64,000 nucleotides of DNA, taken from contig JAIQFV010000002.1 of the NCBI GenBank assembly GCA_020073085.1, forward strand, positions 376,875-440,874, given 5' to 3'. Below the pieces are notes generated by a model. It had not been told where the DNA came from. It was given only the letters and a program-made list of their open reading frames with translations, and did not search any database. This document shows positions 11,287 to 17,883 of this stretch, in pieces; position 1 is the first letter of the stretch; every line of letters begins with the position of its first letter. Position numbers and translations under genes: made by a program. The stretch is from Terriglobia bacterium. GTDB lineage: Bacteria > Acidobacteriota > Terriglobia > JAIQFV01.

Positions 11287-11530
11287 TGATTCTCCTCGAG
11301 AGGTCAATCCAAGAAAGAAGTGTCATAAGAGAGAACGCCGGGTCCCTGCAACCTGCCGCCACCAAAATTCCCTCACCATTTCACCGGGATTCTGCTAGTA
11401 TTTTTGGCTCGCATTCACCTGAAATCAAGACTCAAAAGCAAAAAGTTATCACTGCCGTCTTGAAGCCGTCACCATCGGAAGCCGACCGCTGAATCTCATC
11501 CTGACCTGCGGGCCCGACAAGGGAGGAACA

Positions 11531-12763: not shown

Positions 12764-13309
12764 ATGACCGAGCAACACAAAACCCAAACAGTTTACGGGA
12801 TCCTTCTCGCCGTCGCCATTCTCTGGAACCTGGCGTTCATTGCGGCGCCGTGGAGCTGGGCACAAGGGCATACGATTGTGGCTACAGGGTTGTACTTGAT
12901 GTTTTCTCCGGTGTGTCATCAGCGGGCGGACCGGTCTTTCTTTGCATTCGGTCACCATCTGGCGGTGTGCCATCGCTGCACCGGGATTTACCTGGGGGCG
13001 CTGGCAGGCCTCTTGTTGGTTCCGCTGCTGAGCCTGGCGCGGCCCGGGAAAAGGGAGGGACTGGTTCGAGTTCGAATTCAGAACCGGGCATTGTTGTTGC
13101 TCGCCCTGGCGCTGATGGCCGCGGATGTGGGAGGCGAACTTTTGGGAATACGCCACAGCACCCCGATGTCTCGATTTTTGACCGGTGCCTTTTGTGGTAT
13201 AGTGGCAACGTTCTATTTACTGCCAGCCATTTTCGATATCTTTATCAAGGTTTCCAAAGAGTCCAGACCCGCCGTCGCCACTGATGTTTCCGGAATCAAA
13301 ATATTCTGA
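12764..13309 (+). CDS. DUF2085-like membrane protein
   Basis: Multi-TM protein with conserved CHQR...CHRCTGIY cysteine/histidine motif. Confidence 0.55.
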   Translation: MTEQHKTQTVYGILLAVAILWNLAFIAAPWSWAQGHTIVATGLYLMFSPVCHQRADRSFFAFGHHLAVCHRCTGIYLGALAGLLLVPLLSLARPGKREGLVRVRIQNRALLLLALALMAADVGGELLGIRHSTPMSRFLTGAFCGIVATFYLLPAIFDIFIKVSKESRPAVATDVSGIKIF

Positions 13310-13437
13310 ATGCAACCACGGCATTGAAAGCAGGGAGTTGTCATTGGAGACTGGGAACCGAGTGAAAACGCTGAGTGGGAGCGGCTTCAAGGCGCCAGTC
13401 AGGGTTCACTGAGTAGCCAAGACCAAGGAGGATCTTT

Positions 13438-14196
13438 ATGGCTCTATTTTGCTCAAAGTGCGGGACCGCTATCGTCACGGGATCAAAATTCTGTCAGGCG
13501 TGCGGGGCGCCGGCGCCTCAACCGATGCAAGCTGCGCCGCCTCCCCCAGCCCAACCACAGCAGCAATGGGCCGCACCTCCGCCGGTTCCACCCCCTCAGC
13601 CACAACAGCAGTGGGCTCCACCGCCATATGCAGCCGGTCAGCCCGGACCTCCGACGAAGAAGACCGGAGGAGCCCTCAAAGTTATCTTGATCGTTCTTGG
13701 GGTCATCGTCATCCTCATCGTGGTGGCCGTCGTAGGCGTTAGCCTGTTTATCAAGAAGACCGTGCTCGATAACGTCTCGGTAAAAGAGGGGCCGGGAGGG
13801 AGAGCCGAGGTCTCCATCAACACCCCCAAGGGACAGATCAAACTTAACTCGAAGGCGGACATTTCTGAAGAAAAGCTGGGTGTCCCGATTTATCCGGGCG
13901 CCAGGGCCGAGGAAGGGTCAGGCTCTTTCAGCATCTCCGGGGGGGAAGGGGAGAAGGGCGGCACTTTGGGCGGCGCCACCTTCACCACAACCGACAGCAT
14001 CGACAAGGTGGTCGAGTTTTACAAGAGCCGGCTGGGTAACAAGGTCAGTGCCTTTGATTCCGCTTCCGGAGGAAAACACACGGTCGTCTTGAATGTGGCG
14101 ATCCAGAACGGCTGGAAGATGATCACGATCGAGGATGAAGGGACAGGCGTGACCAAGATTGCGGTCGCGAGCCTTTCCGGGAATTCGCCGCAGTAA
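13438..14196 (+). CDS. zinc-ribbon domain membrane protein with Pro/Gln-rich linker
   Basis: N-terminal CxxC-N12-CxxC zinc ribbon (FCSKCG...CQACG), PPPPAQPQQQW low-complexity linker, one TM helix, C-terminal globular domain; AAGGAGG ribosome-binding site. Confidence 0.55.
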   Translation: MALFCSKCGTAIVTGSKFCQACGAPAPQPMQAAPPPPAQPQQQWAAPPPVPPPQPQQQWAPPPYAAGQPGPPTKKTGGALKVILIVLGVIVILIVVAVVGVSLFIKKTVLDNVSVKEGPGGRAEVSINTPKGQIKLNSKADISEEKLGVPIYPGARAEEGSGSFSISGGEGEKGGTLGGATFTTTDSIDKVVEFYKSRLGNKVSAFDSASGGKHTVVLNVAIQNGWKMITIEDEGTGVTKIAVASLSGNSPQ

Positions 14197-14286
14197 TCTA
14201 TTCGGCGGAGTGTTCTAACTGGTGATGCAGATATGCATCGGGTTTCCAGAAACAGAGCGATAGACACTTAATCAAGGGAGAGTGAC

Positions 14287-15003
14287 ATGGCCGCTTTTTG
14301 CCCGAATTGTGGAAACACGATTGATGAAGGAGCGAGGTTTTGCCAGAAGTGTGGAGCCGCATCGCCGCAGCCTGCCGCAGCGGCCCCTCCGCCCCCACCG
14401 CCACCTCCTGCTCCGGAACCACAGTGGACTCCCCAACCCCCTCCTCCACCCCAAGGACAATGGACGCCACCTCCCTCGGGGTTTCCTGCGGCGCCTGCGG
14501 GCGCCCCTTCAAATAAGATGAAAGCAGCACTGTTGGGAGGGCTGGTGGGGGGCCTTTTGTCAGGTCTTCCGTTTATTAAGGCCGGCAACTGTTGCTTCTG
14601 CCTTTGGGTCATGCTCGGCGGGGTCATCGCTGTCTATATATACAGCAAACAGCTTTATGCAATGACGGGGGGCACGGCGGCTCTCCTGGGTATGCAGAGC
14701 GGAATGGTCTCGGCAGTGGTCTCCACGATTATTTCCATCCCTTTTCAGCTCATCATGACCCGTGTGGCGGGGGGATTCCAACGGGAGATGATCGAGAAGA
14801 TGATGGAACAAAATCCCGACTTCCCACCTCAGTTTCGGGACTTTATGCTCAGGATGTTTTCTCCGGAATTTGCTGTCGGATTGATTATTTTCGGTTTCAT
14901 CATCTCGCTGGTTGTTTTCTCACTCTTTGGCGCCCTTGGCGGGATCATTGGGAGGTCGCTATTCAAATCCCATATGGTCGGCGATGTGAAGAGACCGAGT
15001 TGA
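14287..15003 (+). CDS. zinc-ribbon domain multi-pass membrane protein (paralogue of the preceding gene)
   Basis: Same N-terminal zinc ribbon (FCPNCG...CQKCG) and Pro-rich linker, then several TM segments; AAGGGAG ribosome-binding site. Confidence 0.55.
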   Translation: MAAFCPNCGNTIDEGARFCQKCGAASPQPAAAAPPPPPPPPAPEPQWTPQPPPPPQGQWTPPPSGFPAAPAGAPSNKMKAALLGGLVGGLLSGLPFIKAGNCCFCLWVMLGGVIAVYIYSKQLYAMTGGTAALLGMQSGMVSAVVSTIISIPFQLIMTRVAGGFQREMIEKMMEQNPDFPPQFRDFMLRMFSPEFAVGLIIFGFIISLVVFSLFGALGGIIGRSLFKSHMVGDVKRPS

Positions 15004-15169
15004 ACTGACAAGGGCCTTCGAAGACCCGGCTGAAGCGGGTCATGACAAGGGTTCCGAGGGGTTCAAGCCTTGAATTGCTTTGGGAACTGATCCTTAGGGA
15101 AATTACTTTTTTAAGGACGGGCCTGAGAATTTTGAATCCCGGTTGTTTCTACTGGTCAACTCCAAGTGC

Positions 15170-16873
15170 ATGATGAGGAACTTGGACGCCGCGAGCTTTT
15201 GCGATCGATATTCAAGGGCGTTCGTTGTCCTCTTGCTGCTCCTTTTCTTCTTCCACGCCGTAACCCAGATTCCCCGGAAATCTCTGACCGTCGATGAGCC
15301 CGCCAACGTTGCGGTGGGCTATGCATTCCTGAAAACCGGCGATGTCAACCTGGGGGAAGACACTCCGCCGCTGGTGCGTGTGATCAGTGCCCTGCCGCTG
15401 CTGGCCCTGCACCCCCGGCTGCCGCTGGAAGATGCGAGCTGGCGCGACCGAATCCACTGGAAATTCGGAAACGTGTTTTTCGATTCCAACCCGCCCCCGC
15501 TCTACTTCCGGATGATTTTTTGGTCCCGGGTGCCTATGGTGCTTATTGCCTGTGCCCTGGGAGGATGGGTCTATTTTGTGGCGCGTCGTTTCTTCGGGAG
15601 CTGCGCCGCTTTGGTTGCGCTGTTTTTGTTTACCCTCGAGCCCAACATCCTCGCCAACGCGATGCTGGTCAAGAACGACCTCGCCTCGGCTCTCGTTTAC
15701 TTGTGGTTTTTCTATGCGGCATGGCTCTATCTGCTTTCTCCCGATCTGCGGAGAGCATTGCACGTGGCCGCGGTGCTGGCGATCGGGATGATGACAAAAT
15801 TCTCATTGTTGTTGCTTTTCGGCCTCGCAGGGATCGTTTTCATCACTGCATTTCTTCTCCATCGGGAGAGGAGATCCTCGAAACCCACCATCGCTCACCC
15901 CACTATTCTCAAGAACCACCTGATGCATGGCCTGGCAGGGGCGGTCCTGATTATCGGGATCGCGAACCTCGGATATGGGCTGGAGCTGTTCCGCCCGCAC
16001 CTTTCGCATGTACCGCTCCATTCCAGTGTATCTCGAGTTCTGGTGCATCTTCTTCCCATAACGCTGCTGGCAGGAATCGAGAGCGTGTTTCAAGTCACGG
16101 GTACGGGTTGGCCGGCCTTTCTGGCGGGGCACTATTCGAGTACCGGTTGGTGGTATTACTATCCGCTTGCCCTTGCCATCAAACTCCCGATCCCGATCCT
16201 TGTTTTTTTCATCTCCGGGTTTGTCTACGGTCTCTATGTGGTCGTCCGGGACAGGGATTGGCGGTGGTTTCTTCTTTTGCTCGCCGTAGTCATCTATCTC
16301 GTTCCCAGCCTGGGCAGCAAGGTGAACGCCGGCCTGCGCCATATTCTCCCGATCTTCCCGCCGATGTGCATCCTGGCGGGCGCGATGGTCGCACGGATCC
16401 TTGAGCGGGGTCGGAAACCCGTGAAGGTGGCGGTTGCAATCTTACTGGTGGCGCTGCCGATTTTGGTGTTGAGGACATATCCGGATTATCTGGCCTATTT
16501 CAACGAGATCATCGGAGGACCACGGAACGGATGGAAATACCTGAGCGATTCCAATTTGGACTGGGGGGAAGAACTCCCTCGCCTGGCTTCCTATGCTCGT
16601 GAGAATCAGATCGATGATCTCAAGCTGGCCTATCTGGGCGGGGGCAATCCGGAGTTTTATGGGATGCACGCTACGATGTTGGAGGTTCCTTACGCCTGGG
16701 AGCCGCACGATCTCCCTCCGAAAATGTCTCCCTCATCAGGAACTTATGCGATCAGCGTGACGCTTCTCCAGGGCACTGTCTTCGGAGATCGTCGTGACTA
16801 TTTTCAATATTTTCGGGATCGAGAGCCGATGGCTCGGCTGGGGGAGTCGATTTTTGTTTTTCAAGTGCATTAG
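15170..16873 (+). CDS. glycosyltransferase family 39 / ArnT-like membrane glycosyltransferase
   Basis: About 12 predicted TM helices with a conserved DEP motif in the first loop (LTVDEPANVAVGYAF), typical of ArnT/PMT-type enzymes. Confidence 0.7.
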   Translation: MMRNLDAASFCDRYSRAFVVLLLLLFFFHAVTQIPRKSLTVDEPANVAVGYAFLKTGDVNLGEDTPPLVRVISALPLLALHPRLPLEDASWRDRIHWKFGNVFFDSNPPPLYFRMIFWSRVPMVLIACALGGWVYFVARRFFGSCAALVALFLFTLEPNILANAMLVKNDLASALVYLWFFYAAWLYLLSPDLRRALHVAAVLAIGMMTKFSLLLLFGLAGIVFITAFLLHRERRSSKPTIAHPTILKNHLMHGLAGAVLIIGIANLGYGLELFRPHLSHVPLHSSVSRVLVHLLPITLLAGIESVFQVTGTGWPAFLAGHYSSTGWWYYYPLALAIKLPIPILVFFISGFVYGLYVVVRDRDWRWFLLLLAVVIYLVPSLGSKVNAGLRHILPIFPPMCILAGAMVARILERGRKPVKVAVAILLVALPILVLRTYPDYLAYFNEIIGGPRNGWKYLSDSNLDWGEELPRLASYARENQIDDLKLAYLGGGNPEFYGMHATMLEVPYAWEPHDLPPKMSPSSGTYAISVTLLQGTVFGDRRDYFQYFRDREPMARLGESIFVFQVH

Positions 16874-16904
16874 TGTATTTGACGGGAAATTGGAACGGCC
16901 GGAG

Positions 16905-17105
16905 AGTAGAGGTGATAGGTAATAGGTTATAGGAAGAAACAGGAAACCTGACGTTGGCTGTTTGAGGAATGAAGCGAGCGTCGTTGTCTGTTGCGGAGAG
17001 TTCAACTCCCGTACCGAGCTTCTAAGACCTCTCGCCGACCTCTGTCTTTGTAGTTCATTGGGTGAAACCTAACACCAAACACCTAATACCTATCACCTCT
17101 TTCCT
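16905..17105. repeat. bipartite intergenic element (GGTGATAGG / AATAGG flavour)
   Basis: Left arm gaggtgataggtaataggttataggaagaaacaggaaacc pairs with right arm ggtgaaacctaacaccaaacacctaatacctatcacctc. Confidence 0.7.
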
Positions 17106-17124
17106 CATTAGAAACCTATCTCTT

Positions 17125-17883
17125 ATGCAACAGCGACGTGGGGACACCACAAAAATTCCTGGAGACTATCAATACTGCGCATTGACTCGGGGGAATCCGG
17201 TCCAGCGGTTCTGGCATTACAGCAAACAGCTGGCGATAAAGAGATATCTCCCGCCTGGGTCCGGCGAACGCATCTTGGATGTTGGATGCGGCTCCGGCGT
17301 GATCACTTCTTTTCTGGGGGAATCCGGCGCATCGGTTCTGGGAATTGACAGCAGCGAAGACGCCATCGCATTTGCCTCTCAAGAATTCTCCGCCCCGAAT
17401 GTGAGGTTCGAGCGACTACTGGTTGACGACCTGGTCGGTCTGGATCACTTGTCGTTCGACAAGATTTATTGCCTGGAGCTCATTGAGCACATCTACCGGA
17501 ACCAAACCCGGGAGTTGTTCCAGCAATTCCGGACACTGGTCAAGCCCGGGGGAAAGGTTTTTGTCACCACGCCGAATTACCGATCTCTTTGGCCTCTGAT
17601 CGAATGGATCATGGATACGGCGCGGCTTGCGCCTCAGATGTCGGAGCATCAGCATGTGGAATTCTTTAATGCCCGGAAGCTGCAGGACACAGGCCTGGAG
17701 TGCGGATTTGAAATGGAGGAAAGTGTCTCCATGTGCTTTCTCGCCCCCTGGCTCGCCCCCCTGAGCTGGCGCCTGGCCGAAAAAGCGGACGTACTCGAAA
17801 GCCGTTTACCATTCCACATGGGATCGATTTTGATTGGAGTGTTCGCAAAAAAGGAAGCTGGACAGGGATTAGCTTCTGCTTGA
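17125..17883 (+). CDS. class I SAM-dependent methyltransferase
   Basis: SAM-binding motif I (ILDVGCGSGVITSFL) and downstream motifs; start placed after the repeat arm at ATG 17125. Confidence 0.75.
   Translation: MQQRRGDTTKIPGDYQYCALTRGNPVQRFWHYSKQLAIKRYLPPGSGERILDVGCGSGVITSFLGESGASVLGIDSSEDAIAFASQEFSAPNVRFERLLVDDLVGLDHLSFDKIYCLELIEHIYRNQTRELFQQFRTLVKPGGKVFVTTPNYRSLWPLIEWIMDTARLAPQMSEHQHVEFFNARKLQDTGLECGFEMEESVSMCFLAPWLAPLSWRLAEKADVLESRLPFHMGSILIGVFAKKEAGQGLASA

Follow-up and report, generated by a model that had tools for sequence, protein, structure and literature searches.

Adjacent inner-membrane proteins of a Terriglobia bacterium that share a zinc-ribbon head and a tryptophan-motif tether

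Two membrane proteins with one module in common

A stretch of 64,000 nucleotides (nt) from the genome of an uncultured soil Terriglobia bacterium, hereafter the window, to which all positions of the two genes refer, carries two adjacent plus-strand genes, A and B, that encode membrane proteins with similar N-termini. Gene A (13438–14196) starts with ATG and encodes a bitopic inner-membrane protein of 252 amino acids (aa) comprising a zinc-ribbon head, a Pro/Gln tether, one transmembrane (TM) helix and a predicted periplasmic domain, as judged from the list of open reading frames (ORFs), homologues, and an AlphaFold model. Gene B (14287–15003), also with an ATG start, encodes a protein of 238 aa in which a zinc-ribbon head is joined by a Pro-rich tether to a membrane domain of four helices, probably of the MJ1491 type, as judged from the ORF list, Pfam matches of its orthologues, and an AlphaFold model. 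A and B are different inner-membrane proteins, and the cytoplasmic Zn_Ribbon_1 head with its tether bearing tryptophan (W) motifs is the sole module that they share. The original prediction had described a zinc ribbon, a proline-rich linker, and membrane segments in both products, and all of these were recovered by Pfam (PF13240), composition, hydropathy, and structure models.

The Zn_Ribbon_1 family (PF13240; Pfam gathering cut-off 25) was matched at residues 4–25 of both proteins, with 29.9 bits in A (13447–13512, plus strand) and 35.6 bits in B (14296–14361, plus strand). The ribbon is formed by two CxxC knuckles, C5-x2-C8 and C19-x2-C22 in A, and the spacing in B is identical. Across 64 homologues of A, the second knuckle (C19, C22) is invariant, and the first (C5, C8) is conserved in at least 90%. 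Comparison of codons 1–26 with those of orthologues gave pN/pS values of 0.06–0.24 for A and 0.21–0.41 for B, and this purifying selection indicates that the heads of both proteins are functional.

The heads are followed by disordered tethers of about 50 residues, occupying aa 26–78 in A (13513–13671, plus strand) and aa 26–74 in B (14362–14508, plus strand). Over the 55 linker residues 26–80, A contains 20 Pro, 11 Gln, and 10 Ala, and B contains 24 Pro and 10 Ala. Each linker has two QW.PPP-like motifs, QQQW(A)APPP in the Pro/Gln/Ala tether of A and QW-T-P(P) in that of B, which are retained in the respective orthologues. Both AlphaFold models are disordered across the linkers (pLDDT 44–58 in A and 51–65 in B, that is, 44–65 overall) and confident elsewhere. 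The original prediction that the C-terminal parts differ was borne out: BLASTP alignment of A with B is confined to residues 1–32 (56% identity, E 1e-5), beyond which A has a single TM helix and a globular domain, and B has four helices. The membrane and C-terminal parts belong, as judged from their sequences, to unrelated families.

In the model of A (mean pLDDT 79.8), the N-terminal ribbon and the disordered tether lead into a long helix at aa 79–111 (13672–13770, plus strand) with a hydrophobic core at about aa 80–105. This is the one strong hydrophobic segment of the protein (KD maximum 3.6), and K81, L84, and I85 in it are conserved. The helix is followed by a beta-rich domain with one helix (aa 113–248; 13774–14181, plus strand) modeled at a pLDDT of mostly 88–97. 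Zinc ribbons require a reducing cytoplasm. Neither a signal peptide nor a lipobox was found in A, and its N-terminal part of 78 residues precedes the TM helix; therefore, A is predicted to be oriented N-in, C-out, with the C-terminal domain in the periplasm. This predicted periplasmic domain shares the fold of DcrB/DUF1795 (Mog1p/PsbP-like) proteins, and no Pfam match of A to DUF1795 was found at E ≤ 0.1.

An indexed search gave 279 homologues of A, which, where named, are proteins of Terriglobia or Acidobacteriota metagenome-assembled genomes annotated as "zinc ribbon domain-containing protein". Of 55 A-family genome loci, 54 have Acidobacteriota-type titles and one (L051) is titled "bacterium" only. 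The head is present in every aligned member. The family alignment is invariant at C19, C22, G148, Y152, P153, A155, D186, and Y195, with invariant residues lying in the motifs LGVPIYPGA and T.DS...V..FYK. AF_1845 (PF27226) is precomputed for a minority of distant A homologues, as "faint" where graded, and is not recorded for close orthologues. Searches of Protein Data Bank (PDB) sequences with profiles of the A and B families returned only generic zinc-ribbon matches to ribosomal proteins. NCBIfam gave sub-threshold low-complexity matches only (GltJ with 14.8 bits versus a cut-off of 450, and a 4-Cys prefix domain).

The membrane part of B (14509–14982, plus strand) was provisionally assigned to the MJ1491 type (PF27404) from model helices, recorded PF27404 matches, and a profile search. 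The AlphaFold model (mean pLDDT 80.7) has helices at residues 75–93, 104–122, 128–175, 181–190, and 193–232, and hydropathy analysis revealed four hydrophobic segments, which correspond to all of these helices except 181–190. We infer a topology with four TM helices and both termini in the cytoplasm, which the positively charged C-terminal tail fits. The precomputed PF27404 match is unmarked on the orthologue P0122, "weak" on P0121, which is identical to residues 78–238 of B, and listed for most B homologues; the orthologues of B carry both PF13240 and PF27404. The match of B to DUF5518 (PF17647), with 14.1 bits and E 0.051, was under the cut-off of 27.

Both genes have the ribosome-binding sites ascribed to them in the original prediction. 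The Shine-Dalgarno sequence AAGGAGG of gene A (13425–13431, plus strand) ends 6 nt before the ATG, and the Shine-Dalgarno-like sequence AAGGGAGAG of gene B (14274–14282, plus strand) is located 4 nt before the ATG and is conserved among orthologues. It is also the sole conserved part of the A–B spacer across orthologues, where no sign of a regulatory element was found.

The start of gene B merits attention because the public gene call is different. The segment 12764–15003 of the window is byte-identical to the Logan metagenome contig L004, on which the public call gives B as a 161-aa product beginning at Met78, plus a spurious out-of-frame ORF of 65 aa (region 14287–14520 of the window; 1573–2289 of L004). 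This call by the gene caller on an identical contig would speak for an annotation artefact, with B truly beginning at Met78 and the upstream ribbon untranslated, which we find scarcely credible. The frame is open from the ATG at 14287, which is preceded by the conserved Shine-Dalgarno sequence. The public call is considered wrong because the Zn_Ribbon_1 match is significant (35.6 bits), all four cysteines are kept in 7 of 7 orthologues, and the head has a pN/pS of 0.21–0.41; with such a low value the head of B must be translated. The truncated call is therefore corrected here. Close "headless" homologues of 157–163 aa (P0126–P0128) may be similar miscalls caused by the Pro-rich linker. On the minus strand at 14198–14627, ORFs of 110 and 119 aa are Gly-rich shadows of the Pro-rich linker of B, not genes.

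Gene neighborhood and recurrent linkages

Gene A is preceded by a gene for a DUF2085 membrane protein of 181 aa (12764–13309, plus strand; PF09858 with 79.9 bits, cut-off 25), and gene B is followed by a gene for a PMT_2-type GT-C glycosyltransferase (31.1 bits in Pfam), then a methyltransferase gene, and then the convergent htpX. The two immediate neighbors are those named in the original prediction. According to the ORF list of the window, the genes for DUF2085, A, B, PMT_2, and the methyltransferase are located on one strand with short gaps. A PADLOC analysis of the DUF2085, A, and B proteins gave no match to defence systems; its sole hit, with 15.8 bits, fell on the TM region of A and its low-complexity linker.

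The window proteins were compared with 67 loci by tblastn. The order glpX-DUF2085-A-B-...-htpX was found in six loci, L001, L013, L014, L015, L017 (same contig as L002), and L018, which represent five species-level genomes and one metagenome contig and have A proteins with 50–86% identity. In all syntenic relatives DUF2085 is directly upstream of A. Conservation of the pair and its neighborhood, at issue in the original prediction, was thus seen in part: A, B, and DUF2085 occur together in all six related loci, but neither B nor DUF2085 was found within 6 kb of A in any of the 49 more distant A-family genome loci. The glpX-DUF2085-A-B-htpX order was also missing from four further distant A contexts. 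Some of the distant A genes are located beside a cox operon or between PHO4 and scpB. Conservation of the A–B pair is confined to one narrow Terriglobia clade, and since the whole neighborhood from glpX to htpX is syntenic there, this conservation alone says little about function. Elsewhere in the neighborhood, relatives have a PSCyt2/PSD1 and DUF1501 gene pair inserted between the hemerythrin gene and glpX (L001 1497–4909; L002 1473–4905), a place that in the window is just a short gap between genes (11308–11530).

The original prediction also drew the ArnT-like glycosyltransferase into an envelope module with the pair. A module for envelope glycosylation, in which DUF2085, A, and B would work with the ArnT-like PMT_2 protein and the methyltransferase, would be consistent with five same-strand genes separated by short gaps, with no convincing terminator among them, and with the same gene order in L001 and L013, both of which have PMT_2 and the methyltransferase. 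Such a module is nevertheless very improbable, as the two genes vary independently: L015 has only PMT_2, L018 has only the methyltransferase, and in L017 both are missing and htpX directly follows B. Moreover, no A- or B-family locus outside the clade has PMT_2 or the methyltransferase nearby. Since these genes come and go among syntenic relatives, they form no module with the A–B pair, and this spurious link to a glycosyltransferase can be removed. In the window (15143–17883), PMT_2 and the S-adenosylmethionine (SAM) methyltransferase between B and htpX act as independently variable inserts.

Linkage to DUF2085 was analyzed in 83 divergent B-family loci with 33–66% identity. A DUF2085 gene was present in 21 of them, in every case (21/21) directly upstream and on the same strand, with gaps of mostly 4–84 bp; where at least 500 bp of upstream sequence was available, 18 of 51 loci had DUF2085 upstream of the B-type gene. 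One distant headless homologue of B (P0133) follows a DUF2085 gene at a distance of 29 bp, in an unrelated neighborhood. The DUF2085 and MJ1491-type genes represent a recurrent two-gene cassette, and in the clade of the window gene A sits inside it. The DUF2085 protein of the window carries the motif C51-H52-Q53 ... C69-x-R71-C72, which is conserved in 21 of 23 DUF2085 sequences linked to B-type genes, so all three genes of the trio bear Cys-rich motifs; in DUF2085 these residues could be a possible metal site. On diverse metagenomic contigs with unrelated flanks, a headless MJ1491-type gene was observed a few to tens of bases downstream of DUF2085 (L068 3448–4543; L074, L119, L120, L124, L133, L134, L137, L140, L144, and others).

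A second linkage emerged outside the clade, among the 37 A loci whose upstream sequence extends to 700 bp or more. In 19 of them, a gene for a zinc-ribbon protein with three TM segments and a DUF4870-like domain is located immediately upstream of A on the same strand; another membrane protein with a zinc-ribbon head is thus a recurrent companion of A. The DUF4870-like domain of this partner scores 21–22 bits, under the cut-off of 25, and is annotated as MamF_MmsF in L012. The original prediction had named DUF4870 among the domains to search for; neither A nor B has a Pfam match to it, and the sub-threshold signal belongs to this separate partner gene of distant A loci. In each lineage, the composition of the partner's tether tracks that of the A protein encoded next to it. 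Examples of the partner gene include L012 320–868, L016 5369–5917, and L021 5360–5845, with 16 more. Literature searches on DUF2085, on zinc ribbons with DUF4870, and on Pro-rich membrane proteins with an N-terminal zinc ribbon yielded no functional information.

Origin of the head of B and its possible role

B shares its membrane domain with a large family, of which an exhaustive profile search recovered 2,818 representatives at E ≤ 1e-3, or 250 at the stricter limit of E ≤ 1e-30. In almost all of the best 150 matches the domain starts at residue 1–10, and the typical member is therefore headless. N-terminal extensions were found in about 7 of these 150 proteins, and four of them (P0184, P0252, P0154, and P0284) are independent zinc-ribbon-like heads. 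Among the 83 metagenomic B-family loci, an in-frame upstream ribbon was present in one, which is a clade member with 65% identity, and all seven clade orthologues of B have the head. The four independent fusions come from other lineages and join ribbon-like heads, by short or Pro-rich linkers, to MJ1491-type domains; many other members of the family carry C-terminal Pro-rich tails instead (P0129, P0131, P0136, P0139).

The heads were compared over the ribbon core in gapped alignments, and an ungapped version was also computed. The identity of B heads was 0.58 to the A heads of the clade and 0.59 to the A heads of the sister clade, versus 0.51 to the heads of DUF4870-type partners in the sister clade and 0.44–0.50 to distant groups (0.44–0.52 for other groups overall). 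As a background, unrelated groups of Zn_Ribbon_1 heads compared among themselves gave 0.42–0.53. The residues right after the ribbon are nearly alike, PAPQPMQAAPPPP in A and PAPEPMQAAPPPP in the B protein of L001. The presence of QW.PPP motifs in both tethers is limited to this clade; the two tethers of the sister clade are rich in Tyr and Gln, and those of Acidobacteriaceae are short, with much Ala, Pro, and Val.

The best reading of these data is that the head of B is of A-type origin, with a modest margin over the background and with part of the evidence coming from low-complexity sequence. Judged by the ribbon core alone, a DUF4870-type partner would also be a possible source (0.51 versus 0.58–0.59 for A-type heads); the proximal linker favors A. 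On this best reading, B would have acquired a head and a tether most like those of A in an old event, in the lineage where A lies in the DUF2085–B cassette. The description of the two genes as paralogous in the original prediction can be kept for, at most, the first ~75 residues (head identity 0.58 versus a background of 0.44–0.53 among unrelated Zn_Ribbon_1 heads from the same genomes), and it fails for the membrane and C-terminal parts, whose families are unrelated. Recent gene conversion between the A and B heads was considered and rejected: identity within the same genome (0.42) equals that between genomes (0.41), and no long identical DNA tracts were found. Because of this equality, copying of the head, if any, should have taken place long ago.

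We tentatively propose, as a possibility to which we lean without regarding it as probable, that the heads and tethers bring A and the DUF2085/B unit together in a small envelope-associated complex. By analogy with the zinc ribbon (ZnR)–linker module of GltJ, a Myxococcus xanthus protein, the heads and tethers would be modules for protein–protein docking. Through their like heads, the periplasm-facing A and the membrane unit of DUF2085 and B could meet at one cytoplasmic partner; alternatively, A and B could bind each other, the head of either protein contacting the tether motif of its counterpart. The outcome would be a small complex associated with the envelope, in which the glycosyltransferase would not be included.

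Several points weigh against such docking. The similarity of the heads is modest, about 5–15 percentage points above the Zn_Ribbon_1 background, and comes from about 15 informative positions plus a low-complexity linker. The lineage-wide composition of the linkers could reflect mutational or compositional drift, not a shared ligand. Unlike GltJ, A and B have no Pfam match to GYF or GYF_2, and their linkers run directly into a TM helix. A scan from DUF2085 to PMT_2 revealed neither a sigma-70-like promoter nor a convincing terminator, and no operon is delimited by such signals. The evidence for the Mog1/PsbP/DcrB-like fold of the C-terminal domain of A, predicted from the model, is moderate. 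Finally, the A–B adjacency arose once, in a clade in which the whole neighborhood is syntenic, and may have been an insertion accident.

The last point may be carried further. A and B could be independent proteins, each with a generic, promiscuous ribbon head, which became neighbors when A was inserted between DUF2085 and B in a single ancestor. This explanation is plausible, if somewhat doubtful, and must be taken seriously: the adjacency is limited to one syntenic clade, all 49 distant A loci lack B and DUF2085, the identity of the heads is only modestly above the background, ribbon heads were fused to B-type domains independently elsewhere (P0184, P0252, P0154, P0284), and distant A genes are found in unrelated contexts (cox operon; PHO4/scpB). 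However, a zinc-ribbon membrane partner adjoins A in every locus of the clade and in 19 of the 37 outside it, which is hard to obtain by chance. Furthermore, B gained its head only in the lineage where A became its neighbor, and from lineage to lineage the tether motifs of A vary together with those of its partner.

A role in signaling or sequestration was also considered. In this case, the DcrB-like domain of A would sense the periplasm and its head would hold or release a cytoplasmic regulator, with B as a second sensor or an accessory. A has a suitable structure: it is bitopic, and a single TM helix separates its small metal-binding head in the cytoplasm from a globular domain on the other side of the membrane. 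The general layout of membrane-bound anti-sigma factors matches this architecture. In addition, the ZnR of GltJ does bind a regulator, MglB (PMC11135422). On the other hand, the ZAS motif H-x3-C-x2-C is absent from both heads, which have CxxC...CxxC ribbons instead, neither the window nor any relative has a gene for a sigma factor or transcription factor among the neighbors, and distant members of the family sit among housekeeping genes. We therefore consider a signaling or sequestration device improbable.

The docking interpretation could be extended beyond this locus, although in this general form it is speculative and rather unlikely. Ribbon heads on Pro-rich tethers with Trp or Tyr might form a modular docking system in Acidobacteriota, which would assemble unrelated inner-membrane proteins around a common partner or by head-on-tether contacts. 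The A-type proteins, the DUF4870-type proteins, and, in this lineage, the DUF2085/MJ1491-type pair would be candidates for it. Heads would be copied onto neighboring genes to recruit their products, as in the case of B, and the system would be a GYF-less relative of the GltJ switch.

If docking is true, a very common but neglected feature of bacterial membrane proteins, the N-terminal zinc-ribbon head with a low-complexity tether, would gain a role as an assembly tag, and the families DUF2085, MJ1491 (PF27404), DUF4870-like, and A would gain testable partners. Two recurrent pairs are documented here, DUF2085 followed by an MJ1491-type gene and a ZnR-DUF4870 gene followed by an A-type gene. Membrane proteins with a zinc-ribbon head are common and already known, for example, TcaA, and the twist in this case is that a member of a family usually without heads received one once A had become its neighbor. 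As a whole, the locus is a lineage-specific arrangement of uncharacterised envelope proteins, which would not surprise a specialist.

Comparison with known systems

TcaA of Staphylococcus aureus, encoded in the tcaRAB operon, combines a zinc ribbon at its N-terminus with a single TM helix and a large extracellular domain, and is associated with envelope-related phenotypes. It is annotated as a zinc-ribbon domain-containing protein (PMC10611510). The likeness is architectural only, as TcaA is a 454-aa protein of a Firmicute with an unrelated extracellular domain and is not among the homologues of A or B.

The periplasmic part of A, as predicted, can be compared with the Mog1p/PsbP-like periplasmic domains of DcrB, an inner-membrane lipoprotein of the DUF1795 family (PDB 6e8a), and of the N-terminal part of PA1624 (PDB 6td9). 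The identity to these proteins is 10–14%, without a sequence-level relationship. The mode of anchoring is also different: A is held by a TM helix with a cytoplasmic head, and proteins of the DcrB type by a lipobox cysteine.

Residues 75–232 of B probably belong to the small multi-pass proteins of MJ1491 (PF27404)/DUF5518 (PF17647), as indicated by precomputed Pfam matches on orthologues and by P0121. Typical MJ1491 members are stand-alone proteins of 150–210 aa that start at the membrane domain, and B differs from them in having an N-terminal head and tether. Within the MJ1491 family, a head and tether like those of B occur in its own clade plus a few independent fusions only. The Acidobacteriota proteins with ZnR and a DUF4870 (MamF_MmsF-like) domain have the same head-tether-membrane layout and, in distant A loci, take the place of the second zinc-ribbon partner that B has here. 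They differ in the membrane domain and in being located upstream, not downstream, of A, and none is present within the 64-kb window.

The closest architectural parallel is GltJ of the Agl-Glt gliding machinery of M. xanthus, a membrane protein with an N-terminal cytoplasmic ZnR, a flexible linker, and a GYF domain (PMC11135422). Its ZnR binds its own flexible linker and, once released, recruits MglB in a switch-like manner, and ZnR-linker modules are noted by the authors to be widespread on membrane receptors (PMC11135422). A and B resemble GltJ in having a four-Cys ribbon at the extreme N-terminus and a long disordered linker on a transmembrane protein, which in GltJ has a periplasmic part. 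The differences are the length of the tether (95 residues in GltJ versus about 50 in A and B), the lack of an Mgl/Agl context around A and B, and unrelated periplasmic and membrane parts. The ZnR-linker module of GltJ was shown experimentally to bind proteins, and the architecture of A and B suggests that their heads and tethers may be likened to it.

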